The notes under the pieces: model-generated
Databases searched by the model: none
What the model was told of the DNA's origin: nothing
The model's input: only the letters and a program-made list of their open reading frames with translations
Translations under genes and position numbers: made by a program
NCBI GenBank assembly: GCA_964016885.1
Contig: OZ024742.1
Coordinates: 35,898,001 to 35,962,000, forward strand
Source: Eledone cirrhosa
Taxonomy: Eukaryota
Length of the DNA stretch: 64,000 nt
Direction: 5' to 3'
In this document: positions 10,345 to 61,532 of the stretch, one piece after another
How positions within the stretch are numbered: the first letter of the stretch is position 1
How the letters are laid out: each line of letters opens with the position of its first letter

Positions 10345-10408
<64 letters not shown>

Positions 10409-10409
<1 letters not shown>

Positions 10410-12878
10410 CGCATGTTCGACAACAACCAGAAGATGCTGTTTGGACAGCTTGAAGGGAAAGAAAGAGGCAACGACTTGATCCCTGAGGCGGAACAAACTA
10501 AAACATTCTGGAGAGGAATATGGCAGCAGGATGTTAAACATAATGACCAGGCAGTGTGGATTGAGACAGTACAGAAGGAGATCAGTGAACAGGCACACCA
10601 ACAAACTGATTTGAGTATCACAGTTGAAACTCTTAAGGGGCAGGCCAAAAAACTAACCAACTGGAAATCACCAGGCCCAGATGGTGTGCAGGGGTATTGG
10701 ATTAAAAACATAACATCCCTCCACCCGAAACTGACAACCATGTTCAATGACTGCTTGATGTCAGGTGAGGTACCAGAGTGGTTGACAAAAGGTACCACAG
10801 TTCTGATAATAAAAGACCGAATCAAGGGTAATGATGTTACCAACTATAGACCTATCACATGCCTGTCCGTAATGTGGAAACTGTTGACAAGCATTATGTC
10901 TGAGGAAATCTGCCATCACCTCCACACAAACAACTTGTTACCGGACGAACAGAAAGGATGCCGAAAGAAGTCACGTGGTACAAAGGACCAGTTACTTATT
11001 GATAAGATGGTAAGGAGGAATTTCAAGAGGAGACACACTGGTCTTGCCATGGGATGGATAGACTACAAACAGGCATTTGACATGTTGCCTCATTCTTGGA
11101 TCACCAAAAGCCTGGAGATCTTCAAGGTGGCAGATAACATCAGACAGTTGTTGGGCAAAAGTATGAAGTCCTGGGAAACAGAGTTAACATCAACTGGAGA
11201 ATCCTTGGGAAGCGTGAAGATAAAGAGAGGTATCTTCCAGGGAGATAGTCTGTCCCCTCTGTTGTTTGTCCTTGCCCTGATGCCCCTGACCAGTGTACTG
11301 CGAGAAGTGAGAGCAGGATACAGGTTGGGAAAGGGAGGGCTTACCATCAATCACCTCCTCTTCATGGACGATCTTAAGCTCTTCGGGAAAAGTGAGAGGG
11401 AGTTGGATGTGCTTGTTGACACTGTCCGTATTTTCAGCAATGATATATGTATGCAATTTGGTATTAGTAAGTGTGGAGTCATTGTGATGAGGAGGGGTAA
11501 GTTGAGCAGAAGTAACGGAATCCAGATACCAACAGGTGAGATGATAAAGGAAATTGACTCTGAGGAAGGATACAAGTATTTGGGCATTCTGGAGGCTGAT
11601 GACATCAAGAACAAAAAAATGAAGGAATTGATAGGAACTGAATACCTTCGGAGAGTAAGGAGCGTATTAAAGTCACATCTGAACAGTAGGAATGCCATAA
11701 GTGCAGTAAATTCCCGAGCTGTGTCTATTATTAGGTACAGTGCGGGAATTCTGAGATGGAATGTTGCTGAACAAAAAGAAATGGATAGGAAGACTAGGAA
11801 GCTATTGACTATCTACAATATGTTCCACAAGAGGAGTGATGTCGATAGACTCTACTTAAGGAGATCTGAAGGTGGAAGAGGTCTTATCAGCATAGAGGAC
11901 TGTGTTCAGATGGAGAAAAACAACCTACACAAATACGTGACTGATAGTAAGGAGCCAATGCTCAGAACTGTACTGAAGGAGGGGACAATAGGCCAGGGGA
12001 TGTCCAAGGAGGAAATAACATCAAGGAGAAAGAGCAGCCTTCAGCAAAAATCCCTTCATAGTACCTTCTTTGAGAAAACTGAACTTAGAGATCCACAGAC
12101 ATGGAACTGGTTGAAAAGAGGAGACCTTAAAAAGGCTACAGAAGGAATGTTAATGGCTGCGCAGGAGCAGGCCCTCAAAACGAAGTGGTTGAAACACCAC
12201 AGTTACAAGGAGGAGGCTAGCCCACTGTGCAGGATCTGTGGAGAGAGAGAGAGGAGACTGTGGCTCACATTGTATCCGAGTGTAAACACCTAGCCCAGAC
12301 TCACTATAAGGGCTGGAGACATGATGTGATGGGCAGGGTAATCCACTGGCACCTATGCAAAGTAAACAATTTACCACATTCTGAGAAGTGGTATGAGCAT
12401 AAGCCAGAGACGGTGATAGAAAACGATCAGGTGAAGGTGCTGTGGGATTTTAGGATACAGACGGACAAGAAACTGGAACACAATAGACCTGACTTGGTGG
12501 TTTTGGACAAAGAAAAAAGATCGTGCCTGATTGTGGATGTGGCCTGCCCATTCGACACGAGAGTGCAAGAGAAGGAGAGGGAGAAAATTAACCGATACCA
12601 GGATTAAAGTGGGAGGTAAAAAGGATTTGGAACTGCCATGAAGTCAAAGTGATCCCGATTGTCATAGGCGCACTAGGGACTATCTCAAAAAGTTTCCAGG
12701 GATGGTTAAAGAAAATTGGCTCCTTCACGCTTTTTGGAACGCTTCAAAAGGCATGCTTGCTGGGAACAGCAAGAACCCTCCGATACGTCCTGAATATCTG
12801 AGGCTGCAGGTAGTGGCTTGATATTCATCTCAACAAACTTTCCAGTTAACTAACATCAATGACTGAGACTCAAAGAGT
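10409..12878 (+). mobile_element. 5'-truncated R4/Dong-like RLE-type LINE
   Basis: ORF 10413..12293 has NYRPITCL, GIFQGDSLSP and NHLLFMDDLKL, then CRIC..ET..HI...C, RHD and RPD..DVACP (restriction-like endonuclease). Frameshifts near 12245 and 12604. Flanked by (TAA)n on both sides, the known Dong-type target. Confidence 0.9.
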
Positions 12879-12904
12879 AATAACAATAATAATAATAATA
12901 ATAA

Positions 12905-14589: not shown

Positions 14590-14781
14590 GGCAATGGGTT
14601 GGCAGTATCAGTAGAGGGTCGGACACCATGCTTTGACGCATAGAGTCACGCCCCTTTCCATTCTGATTTCAAATCCCGCCAAGGTTAACTTTGCCTTTCA
14701 TCTTTACGGGGTCGATAAATTAAAGTACCAGTAATGCACTGGATAATTGTTGGCTTTGTGCCAAAAGTAGAAACAATTATT
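14590..14781 (+). mobile_element. tRNA-derived SINE
   Basis: Matches the window SINE consensus. Confidence 0.88.
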
Positions 14782-14924
14782 ATTTCTGGCAATATTATAA
14801 CAATATGACCCTCCCCAAATATAACAATATATATATATATTTAATATTCTACAATATATATATATATATATATTTAATATTCTACAATATTTGTCCCAAT
14901 AGCTTATTTTAGTTATTGCTCGCA

Positions 14925-14990
14925 CCAACCTGAGGTATCTGATTTTTAATGCGATGAAATACCAATGATGGTTGGCAAATCACTGATGAG
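14925..14990 (+). ncRNA. Candidate rearranged (non-circularly permuted) hammerhead with K-turn, family B
   Basis: CCAACC-TGA-GGTAT-C-TGATTT-TTAATGCGAT-GAA-ATACC-AAT-GAT-GGTTGG-C-AAATCA-CTGATGA-G; three helices, two covarying with 59797-59862. Confidence 0.65.
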
Positions 14991-15053
14991 GGACTAATTT
15001 TATAATATGTAACCCATGTGCAACCACGCAGTATTCCCCTTTCTTCCCATGTT

Positions 15054-15100
<47 letters not shown>

Positions 15101-15135
15101 ATATTCTACATATATATATATATATTTAATATTCT

Positions 15136-15210
<75 letters not shown>

Positions 15211-15286
15211 CGAGGGAAAAGTGGTAAGGAACCAGGTGGACCATAACGCACCAAAGTACTCAATACTTAGGGTAGTAGAGTGGGTA

Positions 15287-15412
15287 ATAGGAGTAAGTAA
15301 GACCCCGACGGCTGAGCTCAAGCCGTTTCGACGGCTAATTCTGTACTAATTAGTACAGAATTAGCCGTCGAAACGGCTTGAGCTCAGCCGTCGGGGTCTT
15401 ACTTACTCCTAT
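15287..15412. repeat. Perfect fold-back palindrome in a dispersed repeat
   Basis: ATAGGAGTAAGTAAGACCCCGACGGC...GTACTA-AT-TAGTAC...GGGGTCTTACTTACTCCTAT; homologous to 52979-53040 and, upstream, to 49305-49390. Confidence 0.9.
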
Positions 15413-15472
15413 ATATATATATATATATATATATTGTAGAATATTAAATATATATATATATATGTAGAATAT

Positions 15473-17222: not shown

Positions 17223-17666
17223 AATAATATCCGATCTTCAGCCATCCGTTCTTGACGCTGTCAGCCAAATGTATGTCTAGTTTTCGGTATATAAAAGATG
17301 GTAACCGAAACGTCCACAATATACCACAACAACTGGGAAAATTATCCCAGCAACTGCCCGAAAAGCAAACAACCGGGCAACGGGCTGGTAACGAGGCAAA
17401 ATAAATAAGTTTAGTCGTTTGAGTACACGAAGAAAACTTGCATGAGATAGGCAAACACATACATCAGATGAAATAGCTGAAACATAAAAACATGAAAACA
17501 GAGGGAAACTGTTTAAGCAAGGAACTACAGCTTGTGGACGAATAATGAAACGAATTGTAATCGTAAGATTACAAAACACCTATTGGGTGTCAGCGGATAT
17601 TGTTTGTTTGCTCCCTTTGTATCATTCCATTCTGTCTCCAATTTGATTTACAGCATTATCCTACGC

Positions 17667-20757: not shown

Positions 20758-21105
20758 GTGAGGTTTTTTTTTTTTTTTTTTTTTTTTTACAAAATGAAAA
20801 ATAACCGAGGTGTCCTACACGAGTGAAAGTATAAAGAAAAAGAGATGAAATCGAAAATGCAACTGGAGTCTTATTTTTTTTTTAAATATATATATTTATT
20901 TGGTTCCTTTACCGGTTTCGCAGTTCTTCTGCTTTTCAAAAGGTGAGTTGAGATGGAGGGTCTGTGGTTTAAAACCACAGACCCTCCATCTCAACTCACC
21001 TTTTGAAAAGCAGAAGAACTGCGAAACCGGTAAAGGAACCAAATAAATATATATATTTAAAAAAAAAATAAGACTCCAGTTGCATTTTCGATTTCATCTC
21101 TTTTT

Positions 21106-21112
<7 letters not shown>
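20751..21112. mobile_element. HHR-bearing fold-back repeat, family C copy 1
   Basis: ~140-bp arms (20830-20970 / 20972-21112) between (TA)n tracts; homologs at 52621-52965 and 57451-57802. Confidence 0.85.
20999..21036 (+). ncRNA. Minimal type I hammerhead, U3-A8 core variant (mirror copy on minus strand)
   Basis: CCTT-TTGAAAA-GCAG-aagaa-CTGC-GAAA-CCGG-TA-AAGG; palindromic stem III ACCGGT; GUA site. Confidence 0.7.
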
Positions 21113-27563: not shown

Positions 27564-27688
27564 AAATATTAAAACAATGAAAGTAAACACAAAACGGTTA
27601 ATTCATAGTAAAAGTCATTATTTTATGAGTTTTAATGAGTTTTACTATGAATTAACCGTTTTGTGTTTAATTTCATTGTTTTAATATT

Positions 27689-27818: not shown

Positions 27819-28235
27819 AATACATATCGTCAAGTATGAAATTTGTAGAAATTTGTTTTTGTTCTACAAATTTCATACTTGACGAGCCAAATATATATAT
27901 ATATGTATGTGTGTATGTGTCTGTGGGACAAAAATAACTTCTTATTCCTCTGCCAATATCCTCACTCAATATTTACTTCTTCATCTATATTAAGACAATT
28001 ATTTTTTTTTGGATATCCTATCATATAATTATATACGTCTATCACTTACACAATGACAATTTGAGCTACTTAAAGCTCTCGCACCCTCTACTTCGCTTCA
28101 CGCATCCTTGATCTACCCTACCACTGGTACCGATAGAGGTAGCCTACCACTAGTAACGCATAGTTACGTCCTTTTACGGTCTGAGTTCAATCGACTTCCC
28201 CCTGCCCTCAAATTGTTGGCCTTTACGAACAGAAA

Positions 28236-28447
28236 TAATTGTTTCTACTTTTGGCACAAGGCCAGCAACTATTCCAGTGTATTACTGGTACTTTATTTTA
28301 TCGACCTCGTAAGGATGAAAGGCAAAGTTAACCTCAAATCCCGTCGAGGTTAACTTCGCCTTTCATCCTTACGGGGTCGATAAAATAAAGTACCAGTAAT
28401 GCACTGGGTATTTGCTGGCCTTGTGCCCAAAGTAGAAACAATTATTA
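28236..28447. mobile_element. Head-to-head inverted pair of SINE 3' halves
   Basis: Minus copy 28236-28335 joined to plus copy 28336-28447. Confidence 0.85.
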
Positions 28448-28775: not shown

Positions 28776-29256
28776 TTTTTTTTTTCATCGTAACGTCTGT
28801 ATACCTATATTTATAGTTTTATTTTATTTTATTTTATTTTATTTTATTTTATTTTATTTTATTTTATTTTATTATTTCTTATCTCATTCTGCCTTTCATC
28901 TTGTTATTTTTCATGTTTTTGTCTGTACACCTCAGTATAAATACGCTGTATCGACAGTTCCAAAATAGTATTTGGATAATTTGGCTGGTAAAAACTATTT
29001 AAAATCAAATGTCACGACAGTACTGCAGATAGCGATTTTTAGAAACATCCAGCAGATTTGATGTTGAGATTAGACCTGTCCAGCGTCTTTTACAGCTATT
29101 GAAAGATAGAGACTTGATAGATTTATGACCCTGACTGAAGACGATAGCAGTTGGCGTGTTTTGCTGCTGAATCTTCATATGGGGAACAGAACTCTAGTGA
29201 GTGAACATCGTTAGTTTTTCTTCCTTCATATCAAAGATTTGAAGACAATTCATTAT

Positions 29257-29330
29257 TCACCTGATGAGATCAGTGATAATCGATCATGACCACACGATCG
29301 ATCTATCCCTTATTGAAACATGTGTCGTGA
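29257..29330 (+). ncRNA. Type I hammerhead with long stem II
   Basis: TCAC-CTGATGA-[long hairpin]-GAAA-CATGTG-TC-GTGA; GUC site; homolog at 49486-49559 (-). Confidence 0.75.
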
Positions 29331-29573
29331 TTAAAATGATTGGAAATTTATACCATGCCTTCGGATCTTTATCTTGATACAAATACTCCGTTTTACATCA
29401 TCTAGCTGTTCCCATAAATGGAATTGGAGATATACAAAAGCGTGGAGAACTTAATATTGCTAACAAAAGTTTATTGGACCGTTTTACACAACCAATAATA
29501 CACCTTACTATATAACAACTATATATATATATATATATATATATGATATATATAATCCATATGTATATATATG

Positions 29574-30775: not shown

Positions 30776-31749
30776 AGAGACCTTAAAAAAGCTACAGAAG
30801 GAATGCTAATGGCTGCGCAAGAACAAGCCCTCAGAACGAAGTGGGTGAAACACCATATTGACAAGGAGGAGGCTAGCTCACTGTGTAGGATCTGTGGAGA
30901 GAGAGAGGAGACTGTGTCTCACATTGTATCCGAGTGTAGACACCTAGCCCAGACTCACTGTAAAGGCTGGAGACATGACGTGATAGGCAGGGTGATCCAC
31001 TGGCATCTATGCAAAGTAAACAATTTACCACAATCTGAGAAGTGGTATGAGCATAAGCCAGAGTCGGTGATAGAAAACGATCAGGTGAAGGTGCTACGAG
31101 ATTTTAGTATACAGATGGACAAGAAATTAGAACTCAATAGGCCTGACCTGGTGGTTTTGGACAAGGAAAAAAGATCGTGCCTGATTGTAGATGTAGCCTG
31201 CCCATTTGATTCGAGAGTGCAAGAAAAGGAGAGGGAGAAAATTAACCGATACCAGGACTTAAAGTGGAAGTTAAAAAGGATTTGGAACTGCCATGAAATC
31301 AAGGTCGTCCCGATTGTCATAGGCGCACTAGGTACTATTATTATTATTGATAAGGCGGTGGATTGGCAGTATCGGTAGAGGGTCGGGCGCCATGCTTTGC
31401 AGAAAAGAGTTACGGCCCTTTATGATCTGAGTTCAAATCCCGCCGAGATTAACTTTGCCTTTCATCCTTACGGGGTTGATAAAATAAAGTACCAGTAATA
31501 CACTGGTATAATTGCTGGCCTTGTGCCAAAAGTAGAAACAATTATTATTGATCTTTGAGTCTCAGTCATTGATGTTATTTAACTGGAAAGTTTGTTGAAA
31601 TGAATATCAAGCTGCTACCTGCAGCCTCAGATATTCAGGACGTATCGGAGGGTTCTTGCTGTTCCCAGCAAGCATGCCTTTTGAAGTGTTCCAAAAAGCG
31701 GGGCTGGACTAATCTTCTTTAACCATCCTTGGAAACTCTTTGAGATAGT
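30776..31749. mobile_element. Rearranged 3' fragment of the Dong-like LINE with an inserted SINE
   Basis: 30776-31336 (+) matches 12117-12680, and 31552-31749 is the element 3' end on minus. SINE 31352-31540 has TSD ATTATTATTGAT. Confidence 0.88.
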
Positions 31750-32274
31750 ATGATGGATAGTCCTGGCTTCTATTTCTAATTCTTCATTTTATTATATATA
31801 TCATATTTGCAACAACACAGCTCGCAATTTTTCATTCATATATGTTTTCCCCCTTCGCTGTGACCTGTCTTTTTCTCTTCCCTTACTGCTATCCTCTTTC
31901 TCTCTCCTTCTCCCTCTTACTTTCACTCACACCCTCTGCTAGTCACCCTCTCTCGGCTAGCTTCTTCCTCACACGTTCACTCACCACTCTCTACCACTCA
32001 CCCTCTCTCTCACTTCCTCCATCGTCCCACACCGTACGAAATTCTTTCCTCGCTCACATTCACACGGCCAAGATGTGTCTTTTGCCTTCTCGTCAATGTT
32101 CGCAAGTTCTTATGTTCAAAATGAATCATTGACTTGATTTTCTCATTTTTTCCTCTCTTTAAGTTGCCTCACCATTCGTGTTTGTTTTCCTCTCTTTCTC
32201 CACCCAATTCTTTTTATCCCAATAACTTAATTTAGTTATTGTATTGCTCTAGCCGGAGGTATATGGTCTGTAAT
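31750..32274 (+). mobile_element. Family A non-coding repeat, near-complete monomer
   Basis: Colinear with 59284-59822. Confidence 0.85.
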
Positions 32275-34292: not shown

Positions 34293-34334
<42 letters not shown>

Positions 34335-34656
34335 TAGAAAAAAACGAGGAAGTTTCGTTAACACATGAAAAATATTTATTGCGTATCAACCTGTTACGCG
34401 GGTTTCGCAGAGGATTGGCTCAAGGTGACCCATAGGGGTTATGGACCCAACTCCAGTATCGATCTACTCCTCAAACTGGTGATGCGGCAAAAGATATATT
34501 TTTGTTACATCACCAGTCTGAGGAGCAGATCGATACTGGAGTCGGGTCCATAACCCCTATGGGCCACCTTGAGCCAATCCTCAGTGAAACGGGCGTAACA
34601 GGTCGATACGCAATAAATACTTTTCATGTGTTAACGAAACTTCCTCGTATTTTCTA
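34335..34656. mobile_element. Fold-back repeat carrying a hammerhead in each arm
   Basis: ~150-bp diverged arms. Plus arm 34512-34603 reads ACCAGT-CTGAGGA-GC...GT-GAAA-CGGGCG-TA-ACAGGT; minus arm HHR is 34389-34480. Confidence 0.75.
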
Positions 34657-34860
34657 TCATATACACTCTGCCTGTGCATAGAGAGCTTGATTTGGTAACA
34701 ACACCAATATTTCACCGTACTACCTACACTATATATATGTGTGTGTGTATGTGTGTATGTGTGTGTGTGAGAGTGTGTGTATGTGTGTATCTGTGTGTGT
34801 ATGTGCATGTATGTGTGAGTATGTGTGTGTATGTGTGTGTGTGTTTATGTGTGTGTGTAT

Positions 34861-37254: not shown

Positions 37255-37580
37255 GTTAAAGGGGAGTGGGGAACTGCCCCTGGAGCAGATACAAACTATG
37301 CAGTGTGGAAATGCCTAAACAGACTACGATCTGGTGTTGGACGTGCAAAAGGCAATCTTGCAAAATGGAGATATTTAAAGGATGGGGATGTTGTGTGTGA
37401 CTGCAACATCGAACCACAGACTACGCAGCACCTCTTGATGTGCTCCCTGCTGAAACACCCCTGCACAGCATTGGATTTAATGAGAAAGGACAGCAATGAG
37501 AAAGGACAGCAATGCGGCGGAACCACATCTAGCCAAGATTTGTAACTTTCACTCTTGTGGACACGATAAGAAGAAGAACC
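37255..37580 (+). mobile_element. Ingi/Vingi-like LINE 3' fragment
   Basis: WKCLNRLRSGVGR..LAKW..CDC..QT..HLL.C, followed by a short UTR and (AGA)n. Confidence 0.7.
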
Positions 37581-37631
37581 AGAACACGTACCAACACAGA
37601 CTTATTAGTTAGTTACGTTACAACACGTGCA

Positions 37632-40600
37632 ATGGGACTGCTGGTTACATTACAATATATACAGTGGGACTGCTGGTTACATTACAATATATACAGTGGG
37701 ACTGCCAGTTACATTACAATATATACAGTGGGACTGCTGGTTACATTACAATATATACAGTGGGACTGCTGGTTACATTACAATATATACAGTGGGACTG
37801 CTAGTTACATTACAATATATACAGTGGGACTGCTTGTTACATTACAATATATACAGTGGGACTGCTAGTTACATTACAATATATACAGTGAGACTGCTGG
37901 TTACATTACAATATATACAGTGGGACTGCCAGTTACATTACAATATATACAGTGGGACTGCTGGTTACATTACAATATATACAGTGGGACTGCTAGTTAC
38001 ATTACAATATATACAGTGGGACTGCTAGTTACATTACAATATATACAGTGGGACTGCTTGTTACATTACAATATATACAGTGGGACTGCTAGTTACATTA
38101 CAATATATACAGTGGGACTGCCAGTTACATTACAATATATACAGTGGGACTGCTGGTTACATTACAATATATATAGTGGGACTGCTGGTTACATTACAAT
38201 ATATACAGTGGGACTGTTGGTTACATTACAATATATAAAGTGGGACTGCTGGTTACATTACAATATATACAGTGGGACTGCTGGTTATATTACAATATAT
38301 ACAGTGGGACTGCTGGTTACATTACAATATATACAGTGGGACTGCTGGTTACATTACAATATATACAGTGGGAGTGCTGGTTATATTACAATATATACAG
38401 TGGGACTGCTGGTTACATTACAATATATACAGTGGGACTGCTGGTTACATTACAATATATACAGTGGGACTGCTGGTTACACTACAATATATACAGTGGA
38501 ACTGCTGGTTACATTACAATATATACAGTGGGACTGCTGGTTACATTACAATATATACAGTGGGACTGCTGGTTACATTACAATATATACAGTGGGACTG
38601 CTGGTTATATTACAATATATACAGTGGGACTGCTAGTTACATTACAATATATACAGTGGGACTGCCAGTTACATTACAATATATACAGTGGGACTGCTGG
38701 TTACATTACAATATATACACTGGGACTGCTGGTTACATTACAATATATACAGTGGGACTGCTGGTTACATTACAATATATACAGTGGGACTGCTGGTTAC
38801 ATTACAATATATACACTGGGACTGCTGGTTACATTACAATATATACAGTGGGACTGCTGGTTACATTACAATATATACGGTGGGACTGTTGGTTACATTA
38901 CAATATATACAGTGGGACTGCTGGTTACATTACAATATATACAGTGGGACTGTTGGTTACATTACAATATATACAGTGGGACTGCTGGTTACATTACAAT
39001 ATATATAGTGGGACTGCTAGTTACATTACAATATATACAGTGGGACTGCTGGTTACATTACAATATATATAGTGGGACTGCTGGTTACATTACAATATAT
39101 ACACTGGGACTGCTGGTTACATTACAATATATACAGTGGAACTGTTGGTTACATTACAATATATACACTGGGACTGCTGGTTACATTACAATATATACAG
39201 TGGGACTGCTGGTTACATTACAATATATACAGTGGGACTGCTAGTTACATTACAATATATACACTGGGACTGCTGGTTACATTACAATATATACAGTGGG
39301 TCTGCTGGTTACATTACAATATATACAGTGGGACTGTTGGTTACATTACAATATATACAATGGGACTGCTGGTTACATTACAATATATACAGTGGGACTG
39401 TTGGTTACATTACAATATATACAGTGGGACTGCTGGTTACATTACAATATATATAGTGGGACTGCTAGTTACATTACAATATATACAGTGGGACTGCTGG
39501 TTACATTACAATATATACAGTGGGACTGTTGGTTACATTACAATATATACAGTGGGACTGCTGGTTACATTACAATATATACAGTGGGACTGTTGGTTAC
39601 ATTACAATATATACAGTGGGACTGCCAGTTACATTACAATATATACAGTGGGACTGCTGGTTACATTACAATATATACAGTGGGACTGCTGGTTACATTA
39701 CAATATATACAGTGGGACTGCTGGTTATGTTACAATATATATACTGGGACTGTTGGTTACATTACAATATATACAGTGGGACTGCTGGTTACATTACAAT
39801 ATATACAGTGGGACTGCTGGTTATGTTACAATATATACAGTGGGACTGTTGGTTACATTACAATATATACAGTGGGACTGCTGGTTATATTACAATATAT
39901 ACAGTGGAACTGCTGGTTATATTACAATATATACAGTGGGACTGCTGGTTATATTACAATACATACAGTGGGACTGCTGGTTATATTATAATATATACAG
40001 TGGGACTGCTGGTTATATTAAAATATATACAGTGGGACTGCTAGTTACATTAAAATATATACAGTGAGACTGCTGGTTACATTACAATATATACAGTGGG
40101 ACTGCTGGTTACATTACAATATATACAGTGGAACTGCTGGTTACATTACAATATATACAGTGGGACTGCTGGTTATATTACAATATATATAGTGGGACTG
40201 CTAGTTACATTATAATATATACAGTGGGACTGCTGGTTATATTACAATATATACAGTGGGACTGCTGGTTACATTACAATATATACAGTGGGACTGCTGG
40301 TTATATTACAATATATACAGTGGGACTGCTGGTTACATTACAATATATACAGTGGGACTGCTGGTTACATTACAATATATACAGTGGGACTGCTGGTTAT
40401 ATTACAATATATACAGTGGGACTGCTGGTTATATTACAATATATACAGTGGGACTGCTGGTTACATTATAATATATACAGTGGGACTGCTGGTTATATTA
40501 CAATATATACAGTGGGACTGCTGGTTACATTACAATATATACAGTGGGACTGCTGGTTATATTACAATATATACAGTGGGACTGCTGGTTACATTACAAT

Positions 40601-43600
40601 ATATACAGTGGGACTGCTGGTTACATTACAATATATACAGTGGGACTGCTAGTTACATTACAATATATACACTGGGACTGCTGGTTACATTACAATATAT
40701 ACAGTGCGTCTGCTGGTTACATTACAATATATACAGTGGGACTGTTGGTTACATTACAATATATACAATGGGACTGCTGGTTACATTACAATATATACAG
40801 TGTGACTGTTGGTTACATTACAATATATACAGTGGGACTGCTGGTTACATTACAATATATATAGTGGGACTGCTAGTTACATTACAATATATACAGTGGG
40901 ACTGCTAGTTACATTACAATATATACAGTGGGACTGCTTGTTACATTACAATATATACAGTGGGACTGCTAGTTACATTACAATATATACAGTGGGACTG
41001 CCAGTTACATTACAATATATACAGTGGGACTGCTGGTTACATTACAATATATATAGTGGGACTGCTGGTTACATTACAATATATACAGTGGGACTGTTGG
41101 TTACATTACAATATATAAAGTGGGACTGCTGGTTACATTACAATATATACAGTGGGACTGCTGGTTATATTACAATATATACAGTGGGACTGCTGGTTAC
41201 ATTACAATATATACAGTGGGACTGCTGGTTACATTACAATATATACAGTGGGAGTGCTGGTTATATTACAATATATACAGTGGGACTGCTGGTTACATTA
41301 CAATATATACAGTGGGACTGCTGGTTACATTACAATATATACAGTGGGACTGCTGGTTACACTACAATATATACAGTGGAACTGCTGGTTACATTACAAT
41401 ATATACAGTGGGACTGCTGGTTACATTACAATATATACAGTGGGACTGCTGGTTACATTACAATATATACAGTGTGACTGCTGGTTACATTACAATATAT
41501 ACAGTGGGACTGCTGGTTACATTACAATATATATACAGTGGGACTGCTGGTTACATTACAATATATACAGTGGAACTGCTGGTTACATTACAATATATAC
41601 AGTGGGACTGCTGGTTATGTTACAATATATATACTGGGACTGTTGGTTACATTACAATATATACAGTGGGACTGCTGGTTACATTACAATATATACATTG
41701 GGACTGCTGGTTATGTTACAATATATACAGTGGAACTGTTGGTTACATTACAATATATACAGTGGGACTGCTGGTTATATTACAATATATACAGTGGAAC
41801 TGCTGGTTATATTACAATATATACAGTGGGACTGCTGGTTATATTACAATACATACAGTGGGACTGCTGGTTATATTATAATATATACAGTGGGACTGCT
41901 GGTTATATTAAAATATATACAGTGGGACTGCTAGTTACATTAAAATATATACAGTGAGACTGCTGGTTACATTACAATATATACAGTGGGACTGCTGGTT
42001 ACATTACAATATATACAGTGGAACTGCTGGTTACATTACAATATATACAGTGGGACTGCTGGTTATATTACAATATATATAGTGGGACTGCTAGTTACAT
42101 TATAATATATACAGTGGGACTGCTGGTTATATTACAATATATACAGTGGGACTGCTGGTTACGTTACAATATATACAGTGGGACTGCTGGTTACATTACA
42201 ATATATACAGTGGGACTGCTGGTTACATTACAATATATACAGTGGGACTGCTGGTTATATTACAATATATACAGTGGGACTGCTGGTTATATTACAATAT
42301 ATACAGTGGGACTGCTGGTTACATTATAATATATACAGTGGGACTGCTGGTTATATTACAATATATACAGTGGGACTGCTGGTTATATTACAATATATAC
42401 AGTGGGACTGCTGGTTATATTACAATATATACAGTGAGACTGCTGGTTACATTACAATATATACAGTGGGACTGCTGGTTATATTACAATATATACAGTG
42501 GGACTGCTAGTTACATTACAATATTTACAGTGGGACTGCTGGTTATAATACAATATATACAGTGGGACTGCTGGTTATATTACAATATATACAGTGGGAC
42601 TGCTGGTTACATTACAACAAGTACAGTGAGACTGCTGGTTATATTACAATATATACAGTGGGACTGCTGGTTACATTACAACAAGTACAGTGAGACTGCT
42701 TGTTATATTACAATATATACAGTGGGACTGCTGGTTACATTACTATATATACAGTGGGACTGCTGGTTATATTACAATATATATATAGTGGGACTGCTAG
42801 TTACATTACAATCTATACAGTGGGACTGCTGGTTATATTACAAAATATACAGTGGGACTGCTGGTTACATTACAATATATACAGTGGGACTGCTGGTTAT
42901 ATTACAATATATACAGTGGGACTGCTGGTTACATTACAATATATACAGTGGGACTGCTGGTTATATTACAATATATACAGTGGGACTGCTGGTTATATTA
43001 CAACATATACAGTGGGACTGCTGGTTACATTACAATATATAGAGTGGGACTGCTGGTTACATTACAATATATACAGTGGGACTGCTGGTTACATTACAAT
43101 ATATACAGTGGGACTGCTGGTTATATTACAATATATACAGTGGGACTGCTGGTTATATTACAATATATACAGTGGGACTGCTGGTTACATTACAATATAT
43201 ACAGTGGGACTGCTGGTTATATTACAATATATACAGTGGGACTGCTGGTTACATTACAATATATACAGTGGGACTGCTGGTTACATTACAATATATACAG
43301 TGGGACTGCTGGTTATATTACAATATATACAGTGGGACTGCTGGTTATATTACAATATATACAGTGGGACTGCTGGTTATATTACAATATATACAGTGGG
43401 ACTGCTGGTTATATTACAATATATACTGTGGGACTGCTAGTTACATTGCAATATTTACAGTGGGACTGCTGGTTATAATACAATATATACAGTGGGACTG
43501 CTGGTTATATTACAATATATACAGTGGGACTGCTGGTTATATTACAATACATACAGTGGGACTGCTGGTTATATTACAATATATACAGTGGGACTGCTGG

Positions 43601-44490
43601 TTATATTAAAATATATACAGTGGGACTGCTAGTTACATTAAAATATATACAGTGAGACTGCTGGTTACATTACAATATATACAGTGGGACTGCTGGTTAC
43701 ATTACAACAAGTACAGTGAGACTGCTGGTTACATTACAATATATACAGTGGGACTGCTGGTTACATTACAATATATACAGTGGGACTGCTGGTTACATTA
43801 CAATATATATACAGTGGGACTGCTGGTTACATTACAATATATACAGTGGAACTGCTGGTTACATTACAATATATACAGTGGGACTGCTGGTTATATTACA
43901 ATATATACAGTGGGACTGCTGGTTACATTACAATATATACAGTGGGACTGCTGGTTATATTATAATATATACAGTGGGACTGCTGGTTACATTACAATAT
44001 ATACAGTGGGACTGCTGGTTACATTACAATATATACAGTGGGACTGCTGGTTATATTACAATATATACAGTGGGACTGCTGGTTATATTACAATATATAC
44101 AGTGGGACTGCTGGTTATATTACAATATATACAGTGGGACTGCTGGTTATATTACAATATATACAGTGGGACTGCTAGTTACATTACAATATTTACAGTG
44201 GGACTGCTGGTTATAATACAATATATACAGTGGGACTGCTGGTTATATTACAATATATACAGTGGGACTGCTGGTTACATTACAACAAGTACAGTGAGAC
44301 TGCTGGTTATATTACAATATATACAGTGGGACTGCTGGTTACATTACAACAAGTACAGTGAGACTGCTGGTTATATTACAATATATACAGTGGGACTGCT
44401 TGTTACATTACTATATATACAGTGAGACTATTGGTTACATTACCACACGTACAGTGAGACTGTTTGTTACATTACAACACGTACAGTGAG
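37632..44490. repeat. 32-bp satellite array, ~214 copies
   Basis: Unit GTGGGACTGCTGGTTACATTACAATATATACA; degenerates to ~44650. Confidence 0.98.
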
Positions 44491-44654
44491 ACTGTTGGTT
44501 ACATTATACCACAAATAATCCGAGTATTGGTTACCTTAGAACACATAGAAGAGGTTTTTAGATACATTAGAAAACATAAATTGAATAGTTGGTTACATTA
44601 CAACACATACAATGGAACTTTTGGTTACATTACAACATATACTGTGAGGTTCTT

Positions 44655-49177: not shown

Positions 49178-49234
49178 TTCTATTATATATATTTCAAGGG
49201 TACCAAAGCTTTGGTACGCCCTCATCAGATAAAA
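49178..49234 (-). ncRNA. Type I hammerhead
   Basis: TTTTAT-CTGATGA-GGGCGTACCAA-agct-TTGGTACCCTT-GAAA-TATATA-TA-ATAGAA. Confidence 0.75.
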
Positions 49235-49388
49235 TACAAAATTTGTTTTATAAATAGTGACATATCCAGGAATCAGACCCCTTAACAGTCGGGGTCTTGA
49301 ACATTTTCCTATTACCCACTCTACTACCCTGAGTATTGAGTACTCTGGTGCGTTATGGTCCACCTGGTTCCTTACCACACTTCCTTCG

Positions 49389-49485: not shown

Positions 49486-49559
49486 TCACGACACATGTTT
49501 CAATAACAGATAGATCGATTATGAAGCCACGATCGATTATCACTGATCTCATCAGGTGA
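49486..49559 (-). ncRNA. Type I hammerhead, homolog of 29257-29330
   Basis: TCAC-CTGATGA-[hairpin]-GAAA-CATGTG-TC-GTGA. Confidence 0.75.
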
Positions 49560-49820
49560 AAATGAAATTGTCTTCAAATTGTCTTCAAAATTCTTGATAT
49601 GAGGGGGGAAAAACGATGTTTCCCCACACAATTCATTCCCTCAGATTAAATGATTGGAATTTTACCTTGCCTTCGGATTTTCATTTTGATACTTATACTC
49701 CGTTTTACATCATCTAGCTGTTCCCTCGATTGGAATTGGAGATGTACAAAAGCGTGGAGAATTTAATATTGCTAACATAAAGTTATTGGACCTTTTTACA
49801 CAACCAATATTGCACCTTAC

Positions 49821-49858
<38 letters not shown>

Positions 49859-49983
49859 TAAACTTAGTCCTTCATCAGTGATCTTTCAACCTTCATTGGT
49901 ATTTCATCGCTTTAAAAATCACTGATGAAGGACTAAGTTTATTCATATGTAACCCATGTGCAACCACGCAGCACTCCATTTTT

Positions 49984-50037
<54 letters not shown>

Positions 50038-50144: not shown

Positions 50145-50604
50145 TATCCCCGATAATAAACACATTAAAAGCTACAGCAATGTGGAAGACATCCATGTAC
50201 ATAATATGAAAGAGTACTGGTGGAATGTTCCAGTAAAAACCCCAATAAAAGGCAGGCATAACAGACCAGATATTATGATATGGGACAGGGAGAAGAAAGC
50301 ATGCACAGTAGTGGAAGTTAGCTGCCCAGCAGATGCCGCCAATATAATATCAAAGATTAGCGAAAAGGAGAATATTTATGCAGAACTGATGAGAAATCTG
50401 CAGATACTCCACCCTGATTGCACCTTCAGATTTATGCCTGTGATTATTGGAACACTGGGGTATGTTAGTAACTGCTTCAATACAAATCTTGAGAAGCTAG
50501 GCTTCACAGGAACAGAAAGAACACAACTAGTTAGGAAATTACAAGTACAATCCATTAATGGAACAGTAAAAATATGTAAAAGATTCCAAAATTTTTGCAT
50601 CTAA
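50145..50604 (+). mobile_element. RLE-type LINE C-terminal fragment
   Basis: WWNVPVKT..HNRPDIMIWD..VEVSCP..K..Y..PVIIGTLG. Confidence 0.8.
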
Positions 50605-52620: not shown

Positions 52621-52622
<2 letters not shown>

Positions 52623-52965
52623 AGAAAGTGAGGTTTTTTTTACAAAATAAAAAATAACCGAGGTGTCCTACACGAGTGAAAGTATAAAGAAAAAAAGATG
52701 AAATCGAAAATGCAACTGGAGTCTTATTTTAAAAAATATATATATATTTATTTGGTTCCTTTACCGGTTTCGCAGTTCTTCTGCTTTTCAAAAGTAGAAT
52801 TGATATGGAGGGTCTGTGGTTTTTCTCACATCAGACCCTCCATATCAATTCTACTTTTGAAAAGCAGAAGAACTGCGAAACCGGTAAAGGAACCAAATAA
52901 ATATATATATATTTTTTTAAATAAGACTCCAGTTGCATTTTTGATTTCATCTTTTTTTCTTTATA
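52621..52965. mobile_element. Family C fold-back copy 2 (U3-A8 HHR at 52854-52889 plus mirror)
   Basis: Arms 52683-52816 / 52832-52965. Confidence 0.85.
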
Positions 52966-54251
52966 TATATATATATATAGGAACCAGTAAGACCCCGACG
53001 GCTGAGCTCAAGCCGTTTCGATGGCTAATTCTGGACTAAATGAAAGTTTATCCTGGTATATAAATAGCCGAGCTTCTGAAGGGGTAATTCCATATATGGT
53101 CAAAGTGATTGTCACAAGGATTGGTCACAAGTTAGTAGTAATTCTGTGATGGCAGATTAGTGGGGGAGAGGGTGGCTAAACCTGCCAGTAGGAGAAAGAG
53201 GGGAGGGAGTGGAGTAGACCCAATCATGCGTTGGTAGTGCCAGCTACAGCTGGGATTGAGGTCAAAGAAGATACTAGGGAGGGGGAGGGGGAGGAAGTCG
53301 AAACGGTAAGTAGAACAATGAAGGGTAAAAATATGAAAAAAAAAATACTGAGTGATAAAAAGCGAATAAATGTAAAGAAAAAAATATAAGCAATTTCTAC
53401 GACCTAAGTCTCTAGCTATTGCTAGGCTAGATAAATAAATAAATAAATAAATAAATAAAGAAATAAAGAAAGAAATAAAGAAATAAAGAAATAAAGAAAT
53501 AAAAAAATAAGTAAATAAACTAGGTGGGACGGAATAGGAAAGGACCCTTTTAAGAGGTATAAGTACGTATATCATACGGTGACGGGTCAACAATGGGGGC
53601 CAAAATACTAAAGAAACTACCACGAAATAATTAATAAAGGTTTCTACCCCGGGCACAAGGCCAGCAACCACCCAGTGCAGAAAAGTAAACTAGTACGAGA
53701 TAATAATTCTGCGTCCCGAAAAATATATACTAATGCTAACTCTAATGGTACCGCCACGCTACAAAAGTTCTTATACAAGCTACATGAAAGTTCGTACGAG
53801 GTAAAAGTAGAATACGGAAAAATAAATTCAGAATCCACCCCGCCCAAAAGAAAAGAGAAGAAAGAAATACTGAAACGAGACATTATAGGCAGAGGTGCCA
53901 CTAAGAAATATAGAAGGCACGGGAAAAAGAGGGAGCGGTCGGATAAGGGGGCAAGTATCCGAGGTCTAACACAACTGCTATAAAAAGCGGAGTCCGCCAA
54001 ATCTATCATAGACTAGGGGAGGGGTGGGGGTGGGGGTACTGAGGCTACAAGGGGCCAAAGGGCTGCCTCGGGTGGGCGAGAAAAATACCCCGACAAAGAA
54101 AAAGAACTGGGGTAGAAGGACTAGGGAGGGATGGGGGGAAGAAGGAAATATAGAGGAAGCGATAAAAGAATAAAAAGAAGATCTTACGTCTCCCTTGGCA
54201 AGCAGGGGTTACCCATTACAAAATCGGCAAGTGGGGTGTTATAGCCCTAGT

Positions 54252-56419
54252 CTACCCCCCCCCCCCCCCCGCCGGGTCATTATGGGGTTTGAGAGCGAGG
54301 TAAGTCCTACGCAATCTATGTTTACATGCAGTAACCAGTTCATCTTTCTTGTTTAGGAGTTGGTCCGTCGTAAACAGTATTTGTAAAGTTTCCTCCGAGC
54401 ATAAATTGCACGGACGGCGTCCTCCCGTGTAAGAGTTTGCTCTGGACAGTAATCTCCAAGTGAGATCATAGGTGATGTTGTTGTCCTTGAGGTCCCATAT
54501 GTGGCCCGAAAGTGTAGTGGCGTGACGCGGGGCCGGGTTTCGGAAGGTATGTCTATGTTGGTATAGCCGGGTCTTGAAGTCACATGCGGTTAGTCCTATA
54601 TAAGCTTTGTTGGAGGTGTTCGTCCTCACGTTGCACTGGTAGATCACATTACGGTCTCTGCATCTGTTGTCGAGGGGGCAAATGGATCTATCAGGACAGT
54701 TGCACCTCCTGGTCGGCTCTCCACGGCTATTTAGGTTATTTCTTCCATCGGGGTTGAGTTTTTTGTTGTTAGAGGAGACGATGTTTTGTGCGAAGTTTGG
54801 TGTAGTGCTGTAAGAGAGTTTGATGGTATTTTTGTTAATTATGTTGTGGTAGCGGTGTTGTAGTGGGAAGTGTTTTTCAATGAGCCTAAAGAATATTTTC
54901 CCGATGGGAGTTGTCACCTCTGCGCTGTGGGGAGGATTGAACCATGTTACATTGCGTGAGCGGCGGTGTCGCCTGCTGGTTCCGCTAATGGGAGCTGGAC
55001 AGTAGGATATTTCCTCCCGGAAACCACTCCGCTTGAGGGCCTGGTTGTAATAAGGCGCATGTTCATCGAATATCCGCTCATTAGCTGACAAACCGGATAT
55101 GCGGAGGGAGATGTTTTTGACCAGGTTGTTGGGGATGTTCCTAGGATGGTTTGATCGGCGGTGGATGTAGTGCAGGTTGTCATTAGGTTTCCTGTATGGG
55201 TAGTACAGGTCGTTTTCGAGGTCGAGGGTAACGTCCAGGAAGTTTACTCGGGTCAGGGACGTTTGTAGGGTTATTTTAAATCCCCAGTCGCGGAAGAAGC
55301 TGATTAATTGTTTCCGGACCCGATCTGTACTACTGGGGTTGTACCCTTTAAGGGTAAGGAGCCCATCATCACGGTACAATCCACCACCTAATGCAGGAAA
55401 CATATCGGTGAGTTTGGCTATTAGGAATAATCCTATAAGATCTGTGACCTCCGCCGAATCCGTAGCGCCCATGCTGACGTCGAAGGGTGAGTCGGGAGCT
55501 CTTTTTATCCATTTGGAGTTGTCAAAGAGTAAGACTGTCTTCCTGGCGTGGAGGATGATTTTTCTTTCCTGGTCGGTGATGGGCAAGTGTTTCGGCGAAG
55601 TCCAAGGCAGCGGTAAGTAGCGGTAAGGTGATTGAAGCATAGTAGCTCTCTATGTCGAACTGGATGAATTTAGTGTCTCGTTTATCCTCCATATTGCTGA
55701 ACCATGAGATTACTTCCTGGGTGTTGATCCATAGGCTAAGTCGGGCGTGTTGCTTGACTTTTGGTATCACGCGGTCTAGGATTTTTTTGCTGATTCTCCC
55801 TATGTCGGACTTCGTTGGGTTAATAAGCCTGATAGAGGGTTTACGGTCAAAATCGGATTTGTGGTCCTTCAGTGTGAAGTAGGGTGTCCGTGGGTCTAGG
55901 GGTTCCGTGCGGTCGGCGACCCCGAGGCTGGAGGTAATTTGTTGTCCATCTCGATTTATGTCCTCGATGCATGAGTGGTTGGCCTTTTTATAGGTGGAGT
56001 TTAGGCTGCTCCTGATCAGTGTGTGGTATCTGTCAGGGTTGACAAAGTATAGGTTCCCAGTTTTATCCGAATGCACCATGATGTCATTGGTGTTATCATA
56101 CTCTGTTAAGTTGCTACGGAGTTTTTGTAGGAATCGGTTGTGTCTGGGTTTGAATTTAATGTTCTTGACCAGTTGGAAGAGGTCATTCTCGAAGGGTGAG
56201 AGCAAAGGGTTCGGGGGTGGGGGGAGATTTGTAGGTAATAAATCCAAATCTCTCCTTGGTGCCGAAGTCCTGGTTGTCGCAATATCTGTCGTAGAAAAAA
56301 GTTCTCCATCTAAGTCTTTTCGCAAATAGATCGATTTTTTGCGTGAGCATCCGAAGGTAAAGTTTTTTCGGTGGGATTGGGATGTTCTTGGTAGAGAAGT
56401 CGATGTTGTGTTTTCGCAT
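54252..56419 (-). mobile_element. Penelope-like element, Naiad-type, RT plus GIY-YIG endonuclease, two frameshifts
   Basis: Three ORF pieces: FSTKNIPIP..KRLRW; SDKT, FDIESYY; FDVSMG, GLYRDDGL, NFLDV, linker CxCx5Cx5C, NVIY..YIG, CNLC..CKH. Frameshifts near 56220 and 55585. Confidence 0.92.
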
Positions 56420-56504
56420 GGTGCAGGTTCATAATGTGTGGTGACAGTCAAGTTTGCAATTTTCAACTGTTGAAAATTGTAAACTTGACTGTCACCACAC
56501 ATTA

Positions 56505-56543
56505 TGAACCTGAAGATTGCGAAAGCATGAAAGTACTTGTTCA
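56505..56543 (+). ncRNA. Minimal type I hammerhead adjoining palindrome 56424-56512
   Basis: TGAAC-CTGAAGA-TTGC-gaaa-GCAT-GAAA-GTAC-TT-GTTCA; palindromic AGTACT. Confidence 0.7.
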
Positions 56544-56816
56544 ATTAACACTTAACATTTAATATTCTATCATACTATTTCATTATAATACCATTATAAA
56601 TTTTAAATAAAACGAGTAAATCAGACAAAGTTGGAATTCCTCTTATTAATATAATCTTCTATACACAATCATACACACCCGTGTATATTTATCTATCTAT
56701 CTCTCTCTCTATATATATATATGTATGTATATAACTGAGATGAGCTGAACAAGTAAATTTTAAACATTCTTTTAAAATAAATTAAAATACAATTTAAATA
56801 TTCACCTATCCAAATT

Positions 56817-57393: not shown

Positions 57394-57445
<52 letters not shown>

Positions 57446-57450
57446 AAAGT

Positions 57451-57795
57451 GATGAAATCGAAAATGCAACTGGAGTCTTATTTTTTTTTTAAATATATAT
57501 ATTTATTTGGTTCCTTTACCGGTTTCGCAGTTCTTCTGCTTTTCAAAAGGTGAGTTGAGATGGAGGGTCTGTGGTTTTTCTCACATCAGATGTGAGAAAA
57601 ACCACAGACCCTCCATCTCAACTCACCTTTTGAAAAGCAGAAGAACTGCGAAACCGGTAAAGGAACCAAATAAATATATATATTTAAAAAAAAAATAAGA
57701 CTCCAGTTGCATTTTCGATTTCATCTCTTTTTCTTTATACTTTCACTCGTGTAGGACACCCCGGTTATTTTACATTTTGTAAAAAAAAACCTCAC

Positions 57796-57802
<7 letters not shown>
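57451..57802. mobile_element. Family C fold-back copy 3 (U3-A8 HHR at 57626-57663 plus mirror)
   Basis: Palindrome centred at 57588. Confidence 0.85.
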
Positions 57803-59248: not shown

Positions 59249-59897
59249 GAAGAAATACCTATGATGGCTAGTAGACCACTGATGATGGATAGTCCTGGCT
59301 TCTATTTCTAATTCTTCATTTTATTATATATATCATATTTGCAACAACACAGCTCGCCATTTTTCATTCATATATGTTTTCCCCCTTCGCTGTGACCTGT
59401 CTCTTTCTCTTCCCTTACTGCTATCCTCTTTCTCTCTCCCCCTTCTCTCTCCTTCTCCCTCTTACTTTCACCCCCCCCCCCCCCTCTACTAGCCACCCTC
59501 TCTCGGCTAGCCTCTTCCTCACACTTTCACTCACTCACTCTCTGCTACTCACCCTCTCTCTCACTTCCTCCATCGTCCCACACCGTACGAAATTCTTTCC
59601 TCGCTCACATTCACACGGCCAAGATGTGTCTTTGCCTTCTAGTTCGCAAGTTCTTATGTTCGAAATGAATCATTGACTTGATTTTCTCATTTTTTCCTCT
59701 CTTTACGTTGCCTCACCATTCGTGTTTGTTTACCTGTCTCTCTTACTCCACCCAATTCTTTTTATCCCAATAACTTAATTTAGTTATTGTATTGCTCTAG
59801 CCGGAGGTATATGGTCTGTAATGCGAAGAAATACCTATGATGGCTAGTAGACCACTGATGATGGATAGTCCTGGCTTCTATTTCTAATCGTTCATTT

Positions 59898-60051: not shown

Positions 60052-61200
60052 TCTATATATATAAAACTGAGGTTGTCTGTCTGTCTACTAAAACCTTCGG
60101 CACACATCTCCTCTTAAACCGTACGTTCAAATTTCGGTGAAATTGCTACACTTATAGATGAAGGTCCAGCGGAACCATCGGTCAAATAAATTTTCAAATA
60201 AGTTCTTGTTTTTGATTATGTCATCTATATATATAAAACTGAGGTTGTCTGTCTGTCTACTAAAACCTTCGGCACACATCTCCTCTTAAACCGTACGTTC
60301 AAATTTCGGTGAAATTGCTACACTTATTGATGAAGGTCCGGCGGAACCATTGGTCAAATAAATTTTCAAATAAGTTCTTGTTTTTGATTATGTCATCTAT
60401 ATATATAAAACTGAGGTTGTCTGTCTGTCTACTAAAACCTTCGGCACACATCTCCTCTTAAACCGTACGTTCAAATTTCGGTGAAATTGCTACACTTATA
60501 GATGAAGGTCCGGCGGAACCATCGGTCAAATAAATTTTCAAATAAGTTCTTGTTTTTGATTATGTCATCTATATATATAAAGCTGTGGTTGTCTGTCTGT
60601 CTATCGATTTTTGGCACACATCTCCTCTTAGAATCTCTCACGGAATTGCACCGAAATTGCTATACTTGTACATTGAGCCCTAGCGAAGACATCGGAAAAA
60701 AAATATTTCAAATTGACCCACCCTATGTGACGAAATCGAATCTAATGTATCGATTTTTGAGCGTAAGTGACGAATTATTTCCCTTTGTTCTGTTTACATA
60801 GAGCGTCTCAGCGTTTAAAATGACATTAACACAATACACGAACAGTTGTCGAGCCAGCAAAATTTTGACCTGCAAAATTCATCAGTTCGAACACTAAGCT
60901 TCCGTTTTGCTTCATTTCCATTTAAAAGCCTTTTAAAACAATATTTTTACTTGAAAACAAGTCTATTTAAAGACTACGTAAAACAAGCAAATATTTCCTC
61001 TTTTGTTATAACATTCGGGTTATTGTTATGTTTTCTTAACTTCATAAGGCATATTGTTGGTTGAGGGAATATTAATCAAAAACACCACATGCAAGTCTGC
61101 ACAGTAGACACTACAGTTTTTAAGCCAAAAAAGAAACTTAACATTGTAACTTTAACACAGCTACTGAGCGACCCCGAGCAACGCCGGGCTTTACTGCTAG
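60052..61200 (+). mobile_element. Non-autonomous Helitron with tandem 172-bp 5' ends
   Basis: Starts TC after A, and ends with hairpin CCCG-agcaacgc-CGGG then CTAG before T. No TSD. Confidence 0.9.
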
Positions 61201-61532
61201 TTAGGAATAAAAGAGTATTAGTAATTGTATGGGTTAGTATTCAGTTGTGGTTTTAAGTTTTTAAGGTTTTACCGGTTGCGCATTTCTAAATGCTTTTCAA
61301 AAATAATTTTGAGATAGAGTGTTCGTGTTGTTTGCTCTGATCAGAGCAAACAACACGAACACTCTATCTCAAAATTATTTTTGAAAAGCATTTAGAAATG
61401 CGCAACCGGTAAAACCTTAAAAACTTAAAACCACAACTGAATACTAACCCACACAATTACTAATACTCTTTTATTCCTAATTAAACCATTTTTCAACTGT
61501 GAACAATTTGCCAGCATTTTCTATTCCGTTTA

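Follow-up and report, generated by a model that had tools for sequence, protein, structure and literature searches.

The window analysed here is the whole 64,000-nt stretch of Eledone cirrhosa DNA, which is repeat-rich and animal-like, with (TA)n arrays, fragments of long interspersed nuclear elements (LINEs), a short interspersed nuclear element (SINE), and many fold-back insertions. Positions 14893-14994 hold a compact motif of a repeat family referred to as family B, and a related repeat, family A, carries the same motif near the far end of the window (Table 1). The RNA structure at 14893-14994 is real and strongly conserved. It is most probably a self-cleaving hammerhead ribozyme of the non-circularly permuted type SGC, placed in the terminal region of a (TA)n-targeting Penelope-like element (PLE) repeat family.

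Layout and core of the family B motif

The full hammerhead core is present, namely CUGAnGA, GAAA, and a NUH triplet with A15.1-U16.1. From 5' to 3' its blocks run S (14934-45), G (14955-63), and C (14977-90), which is the non-circular order SGC in the block names of Eckert et al. 2023 (PMC10085705). The sequence-only reading had reported stem I (TGATTT 14940-45 / AAATCA 14977-82), the outer (NC) helix of a kink turn, or K-turn (CCAACC 14925-30 / GGTTGG 14970-75), the cleavage-site triplet AUC with H17 at 14939, the stem II pair G14990.U14955, stem III (GGTAT/ATACC), and an upstream hairpin. Inspection of the window located all of these features, and the sequence itself, where they had been reported; the values quoted for family A and the A-U pair of a copy near 49.9 kb are also correct. 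Two further helices are added to this set, 14920-24/14950-54 (helix a) and 14893-96/14991-94 (helix c), with stem II split around hairpin b.

Helix c, hairpin b, the NC helix, and stem III are returned unaided by the ViennaRNA centroid, and these would form a nested frame. Stem I and helix a are pseudoknots from the 20-nt loop of stem III, which would give a stem I strand to the 3' side and a helix a strand to the 5' side. The two pseudoknots would bring CUGAUGA, GAAA, and the NUH site into a standard core in three dimensions. The K-turn may fold the far end of stem III back, so that the NC helix would tether the outer ends of stem I and helix a and replace the loop I-loop II contact of ordinary hammerheads. 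None of the Rfam hammerhead families (types I, II, and III) matches the window at the gathering threshold, nor 14700-15450 at E-values up to 10.

As for the K-turn, its standard sequence is found, with a C helix, a 3-nt bulge, G.A and A.G pairs, and the NC helix (position names follow PMC5689011). CUGA and AUGAUG together make a K-turn of C/D type, and the sub-threshold Rfam matches near the motif are of C/D and hairpin types, those of the C/D type having E-values of 0.82 and 2.3. A box C/D small nucleolar RNA (snoRNA)-like molecule, in which CUGAUGA and the K-turn would be the boxes and no ribozyme core would exist, is nevertheless extremely improbable. Rfam scores are 22 and 17 bits versus cut-offs of 65 and 85, respectively; family B has no box C 5' of the motif, and in family A the only one is the core of the neighbouring unit. 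Such an RNA would also leave GAAA, the NUH triplet, and the covariation of stem I unexplained, and the coral relatives described below have no K-turn.

Table 1. Positions of the motif in family B, of its parts, and of related copies in the window
Feature	Position	Strand	Description
Whole family B motif	14893-14994	+	Type-SGC hammerhead-like RNA with K-turn and split stem II
Helix c, 5' strand	14893-14896	+	Partner 14991-14994; G-C -> A-U in family A
Hairpin b	14897-14918	+	8 bp, 6-nt loop; reads vary at loop positions
Helix a, 5' strand	14920-14924	+	Pseudoknot with 14950-14954; outer pair not conserved
K-turn, non-bulged strand	14925-14933	+	NC helix 14925-30, 3n U, 2n G, 1n A; box D-like CUGA
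Block S	14934-14945	+	Stem III strand, U16.1 14938, H17 14939, stem I 5' strand; predicted cut 14939/14940
Helix a, 3' strand, and block G	14950-14963	+	Helix a 3' strand 14950-14954; 11.1 = 14955; G12 A13 A14 A15.1, stem III strand
K-turn, bulged strand	14964-14975	+	L1-L3 AAU, 1b G, 2b A, 3b U, NC helix 14970-75; box C-like AUGAUG
Block C	14977-14994	+	Stem I 3' strand, CUGAUGA 14983-89, 10.1 = 14990, helix c 3' strand
Family B 3' tail	14995-15058	+	Runs into (TA)n at its end; in common with 49916-49988
Truncated second family A unit	31750-32274	+	90.5% identical
Fold-back copy of family B in (TA)n	49856-49988		Minus-strand arm begins at first base 3' of predicted cut; tail on one arm only
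Family A, full motif	59761-59865	+	End of 576-nt unit; 5'-truncated copy at 59249 precedes it (partial tandem)

Conservation among copies, reads, and Naiad elements

Between families A and B, 34 of the 35 pairs are kept and 6 are altered on both sides, including 2 in the NC helix and 2 in stem I; stem III is unchanged, and the single loss is the outer pair of helix a. The structure was itself derived from A and B, so the simulated P-values are to some extent circular; they are 1.5e-5 for the 34 kept pairs and 0/200000 for the 6 compensations. An alignment of five copies (two full and three partial) has 97.7% of 87 cells paired versus 26-47% in slid registers, and its pairing measures are equalled by 6 to 13 of 500 shuffles (6/500 for the paired-cell fraction). 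With a descriptor of the SGC order plus the K-turn, the 64-kb window yields 2 hits, at 14938 and 59810, and 150 block-wise dinucleotide shuffles yield none; a descriptor restricted to the core finds 4 sites versus a shuffle mean of 0.04. The 3b.3n position of the K-turn is U.U in B and U.G in A, with A at either site in reads.

The sequence-only reading had set A and B apart as separate families with unrelated flanks and compensatory changes. The 6 double-sided changes stand, and the flanks do differ for the copy at 14893-14994. The 5' flank of longer B copies, however, as given by the consensus of loose read ends, is identical to the 30 bases upstream of A at 20/30 positions (ungapped, by eye), and blastn aligns B to A at 79% over 105 nt; for these reasons A and B are regarded, on sequence grounds, as diverged subfamilies of one element. 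Their 3' tails differ. Because the two are related by descent, their comparison is not the main internal support of the ribozyme model, as had been claimed; the comparison with Naiad elements takes that place.

Four sequencing runs were mapped to 14876-15058 (1453 contigs in X1, 2 contigs in X4, 29 contigs in X5, and 2305 reads in X7), with three organism labels among them; the variants are unphased, and 40 of 66 variant rows are listed. According to these reads and contigs, family B exists in many copies. Among the listed rows, 28 of 40 fall within the motif, at 26 of its 102 positions. A matched pair of changes is seen in stem I, 14944T>C / 14978A>G, at 44%/44% in X7 and 18%/20% in X1, and two more in the NC helix, 14927/14973 at 26/18% and 14930/14970 at 20/26%. 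One-sided changes yield G.U on the plus strand. Overall, 11 of the 18 listed paired-site rows are compatible with the structure (null mean 7.0, P 0.058), and the other 7, including 14934 G>A, 14953 G>A, and 14955 T>A, are unexplained; the unexplained changes at 14898, 14922, 14923, and also 14934 have at most 10 read starts each and are near zero in X1. The read variants thus give modest support for the pairing.

None of 17 core and K-turn positions is variable among the listed rows (hypergeometric P 0.004), a set that was drawn up only after the variant table had been viewed. Variable sites among these rows are N7, H17 (mostly A), L1, and 3b/3n. Some blocks that had been called invariant do vary: TAATGCGA is TAAAGCGA in the 49.9-kb copy, 14950 T>A occurs in about 40% of reads and contigs, and CTGATGA varies at N7 in 10-18%. 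The loose ends of reads include an alternative hairpin b with altered pairs, as well as 3' ends that enter (TA)n.

The strongest evidence comes from Naiad elements, all comparisons being made by eye on the consensus sequences in the supplement of PMC8557442. In both Naiad_Obim and Naiad_Ovul, a scaffold like that of family B lies downstream of the open reading frame (ORF), on the sense strand at the 3' end; its parts follow one another as helix c, a hairpin with the loop of B, helix a, the NC helix, the K-turn, a GUA site, a stem I of 6 bp, and CUGAUGA. Autonomous octopus Naiads, as far as their consensus sequences tell, thus end in the scaffold of the motif. Of the 35 pairs of B, 32 persist, 21 of them with both bases replaced (1 in helix c, 3 in hairpin b, 3 in helix a, 4 in the NC helix, 4 in stem III, and 6 in stem I); those lost are an A.C in hairpin b, the outermost NC pair, and 10.1-11.1 (U.C). 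For Naiad_Ovul, both sides are swapped in 6/6 stem I, 4/5 stem III, and 3/5 helix a pairs. The K-turn of the octopus Naiads still has U at L3 and a purine at L2, and its 3b.3n position is U.U. The earlier proposal of selection on plus-strand RNA structure is supported by this covariation, by the double-sided A/B changes, by the three matched pairs in the reads, and by the plus-strand G.U pairs.

Symmetry at the DNA level, produced by chance or by fold-back insertions in a repeat-rich region, could be considered in a window full of palindromic insertions, where the motif has a fold z-score of just -1.48. It can hardly account for the structure: crossing helices cannot arise from one inversion, the changes tolerate G.U on one strand, and the scaffold survives a near-complete turnover of its paired bases in the Naiads.

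Among the 52 Naiad record ends inspected, 2 have the SGC order with a K-turn, 4 have SGC without a K-turn, and 6 have the order CSG; in the other 40 (last ~330 letters, including Naiad_Omin, Esco, and Adux) no permuted hammerhead was recognised by eye, no systematic scan having been made. SGC without a K-turn but with a long stem III (11-12 bp) is found in three Acropora elements (Naiad_Amil, Naiad_Aacu, and Naiad_Anas) and in the spider element Naiad_Smim. The Acropora Naiads have helices a, b, and c and a 1-nt linker in common with B; where B has the K-turn and NC helix, they have a stem III of 12 bp, a bulge of 7 nt, and a helix of 10 bp. This points to the K-turn as the source of a bend that the fold requires. 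Six nematode ends (Nbra x3, Hcon, Hpol, and Asuum) show the CSG order with all three stems. Non-circularly permuted hammerheads are probably a normal part of Naiads in various animal phyla, with the SGC order in octopus, coral, and spider and the CSG order in nematodes; this would explain part of the 'missing' ribozyme.

Regarding stem II, the single pair of the sequence-only reading is seen in the window copies (G.U in B, U-A in A, and A-U in the 49.9-kb copy) but is not kept in the Naiad relatives, which makes it doubtful. In B the stem II strands lead on into two different helices. The base before GAAA is able to pair upstream and lengthen helix a in Acropora and octopus Naiads, and the single stem II pair may therefore not be real geometry. 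A non-standard closing pair would suit a hammerhead-derived scaffold that no longer cleaves and is retained as a binding or priming signal for the PLE reverse transcriptase (RT) or for Snu13. According to Craig et al. 2021 (PMC8557442), Naiads have spread although they have no canonical hammerhead, and the K-turn has features of the protein-bound type (PMC5689011), as such a scaffold might. It is, however, very unlikely, given that the catalytic positions and NUH are kept, that N7 and H17 vary as catalysis permits, and that Naiads have, at one and the same place, three alternative block orders or braces.

Host element and genomic setting

Family A is a 576-nt non-coding unit, and the copies of A and B seen have no ORF. 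The family B copy at 14893-14994 is 5'-truncated into a (TA)n array. Partial tandems, an inverted 5'-truncated copy, a one-sided tail, and a bias for (TA)n are all found; tandem, inverted, and tail features of this kind are hallmarks of PLEs according to Craig et al. 2021 (PMC8557442). The link of the scaffold to an ORF with an N-terminal GIY-YIG and RT is seen in the published octopus Naiads only.

In the proposed mechanism, a cut at 14939/14940 would free unit-length RNA from tandem or read-through transcripts, as expected from the biology of PLEs and retrozymes. For family A, the released unit would be 576 nt and possibly circularised. A PLE reverse transcriptase, most likely that of a Naiad, would then copy the freed RNA into (TA)n. 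A cDNA that runs off the cleaved 5' end and snaps back on stem I would give the fold-back at 49856-49988, whose joint at the predicted cut is compatible with cleavage but not diagnostic of it.

In metazoans, the hammerheads of PLEs and retrozymes often depend on dimer formation and show weak cleavage (PMC4209133; PMC7229834), family A exists as a partial tandem, and stem I of B is weak. The core might therefore be real but assembled across two tandem copies or molecules, for instance with S and C from the same unit and block G from the unit that follows, an arrangement in canonical order. This arrangement is unlikely, since stem III is locked within one unit by the K-turn and the NC helix, as ViennaRNA predicts unaided, and since it has a full 5 bp here, and more in the coral and spider Naiads, in contrast to the palindromic stems of 0-2 bp in dimer-type motifs.

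Several points weigh against a self-cleaving ribozyme, beginning with the by-eye basis of the Naiad comparison, the unphased and partly listed read variation with its 7/18 unexplained rows, and the post hoc choice of the 17 positions. The nested fold alone is not unusually stable (z = -1.48), and stem I of the family B copy reaches just -2.3 kcal/mol. Stem II is non-standard, as 10.1-11.1 is U.C in octopus Naiads and A.C in Acropora. Reads and contigs over 14876-15058 include no listed joints and show no pile-up of ends at 14940, where 1 of 18 listed pieces starts. The joint of the fold-back coincides with the self-complement of stem I and so does not require cleavage; a template switch inside stem I would give the 49856-49988 fold-back equally well. 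Finally, no Naiad-type RT motif was found in the window, and so a Naiad RT as the mobilising partner is an inferred one.

Two other elements of the window were considered as carriers and rejected. A PLE at 52975-56544 (minus), frameshifted, with RT and then GIY-YIG-like motifs recognisable by eye and without a Pfam match, has at its end the 3' half of a hammerhead in canonical order. That end corresponds not to B but to 15290-15409, where it recurs as a perfect 120-nt fold-back. A LINE of the restriction-enzyme-like (REL) endonuclease type (10.4-12.9 kb and 30.8-31.7 kb) adjoins an A copy by nesting only. Fragments of REL-endonuclease LINEs lie at 10380-12900 (+), 30777-31749, and 50150-50400, the first bounded by (TAA)n, and by their motifs we take them to be R4/Dong-like.

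Hammerhead-like motifs are also seen elsewhere. On the minus strand, 17228-17350 may be a third SGC scaffold, without a K-turn, having a hairpin, helix a, a 6-bp stem I, CUGAAGA, and a weak stem III of 3-4 bp; it is a single copy interrupted by a SINE, with a fold z of -1.25. Type I (canonical-order) motifs of PLE style, with a short or palindromic stem III, occur at 29255-29335 (+), 49180-49235 (-), and 49490-49560 (-), and Rfam detects none of them. Long perfect or near-perfect fold-back insertions are located at 20789-21108, 27565-27688, 28234-28446, and 34331-34660, and further ones at 52622-52961, 56409-56527, 57442-57801, and 61198-61483, several of them beside (TA)n. The window SINE resembles an octopus repeat, and this, together with the match of the motif to octopus Naiads, makes an octopod source probable. 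A 7-kb tandem array with a 32-nt period spans 37484-44500, and the sole Rfam match in the window is a marginal tRNA-like one at 63384-63441 (minus, 29.1 bits).

Comparison with known systems

Eckert et al. 2023 (PMC10085705) describe 583 type-SGC hammerheads (HRIMA-1 and SGC variants) and report none of them in genomes of known organisms. Their source is environmental, almost all metatranscriptome contigs, the one exception being a GCS candidate from a known organism's genome. In vitro cleavage rates of SGC ribozymes from nature are 0.007-0.19 per min, and a helper protein is raised for the slow ones. The motif shares with them the S-G-C order, the full core, and its pseudoknotted arrangement, with a stem I-stem II linker of 4 nt here and about 3 nt there; the proposed ribozyme model fits this validated class. 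Members of that class have a normal stem II and a helix 'I'; the motif differs from them in the division of stem II between helices a and c around hairpin b, in the K-turn that terminates stem III, and in its location within an animal repeat. The helix 'I' of HRIMA-1 and the SGC variants, which directly connects stems I and II at their free sides, is absent, as these sides pair upstream in the NC helix and helix c. Because the peripheral helices differ, the motif is not placed in HRIMA-1, a judgement from architecture in which no HRIMA-1 model was used. The terms 'K-turn' and 'kink' have no occurrences in the text and supplement of that paper. Pattern scans gave 2 matches in metagenome contigs, both bacterial-looking DNA without block C, 26 loose-pattern matches in viral contigs, none with the scaffold on inspection, and 0 strict-pattern ones there, and 0 matches in prokaryote genomes.

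Like the 3' ends of Naiad_Obim and Naiad_Ovul (PMC8557442), the motif has the seven-element scaffold with its K-turn, the hairpin loop, the (TA)n target, and tandem or inverted copies with a tail; unlike them, the window copies have no ORF, and A and B have almost no paired bases in common with them. In Craig et al. 2021 (PMC8557442), Naiads are said to prefer (TA)n and to lack canonical hammerheads, with 8 cases of a 'half core' having GAAA on either side, and Naiad_Ovul is marked merely 'HHR_half_core'. The motif also resembles PLE pseudo-LTR (long terminal repeat) hammerheads and non-LTR retrozymes (PMC4209133; PMC7229834; bioRxiv 10.64898/2026.07.22.740005), in which a hammerhead lies in the terminal repeat of a PLE or in tandem non-coding units that derive from PLEs. 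Those hammerheads, however, are of type I (circular order) and are often minimal and dimer-dependent (PMC4209133; PMC7229834). As reported in the preprint, the 2026 search used type I descriptors alone (bioRxiv 10.64898/2026.07.22.740005).

As for box C/D and U4-type K-turns (PMC5689011), the likeness consists in the 3-nt bulge, tandem G.A/A.G, U.U at 3b.3n in B, and G-C at 4b.4n. Here, in contrast, the K-turn is embedded in a ribozyme-like scaffold, there is no terminal box C, and 3b.3n varies among copies. Folding of box C/D-type K-turns that have U.U at 3b.3n often depends on L7Ae/15.5K (PMC5689011), and gating of the ribozyme by Snu13 is possible but speculative on this ground and in view of the helper protein raised by Eckert et al.; the variability of 3b.3n among copies also bears on it. 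The joint claim, that permuted hammerheads are normal in Naiads and that the octopus form is protein-gated, its K-turn needing host Snu13/15.5K to fold and cut, is doubtful and put forward tentatively. If true, Snu13/15.5K gating would tie the processing of retroelement RNA to a protein of the spliceosome and of snoRNA ribonucleoprotein particles, and a K-turn within a natural hammerhead would be a new architecture, possibly a protein switch.

Non-circular permutations of natural RNA were first described in 2023, from environmental, host-less sequences; the motif would place them in animal genomes, in many copies and with a plausible job, and bears on the stated puzzle of Naiads 'lacking' hammerheads. 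Standard descriptors, it is suggested, miss a class of genomic ribozymes. No account of a hammerhead with a K-turn, or of animal retroelements with SGC or CSG hammerheads, was found in the literature, mostly that outside subscription journals and judged largely from listings. In comparison with the known systems, the SGC order itself is thus not new, and what appears new from the sequences is the variant braced by a K-turn and its setting in an animal genome.
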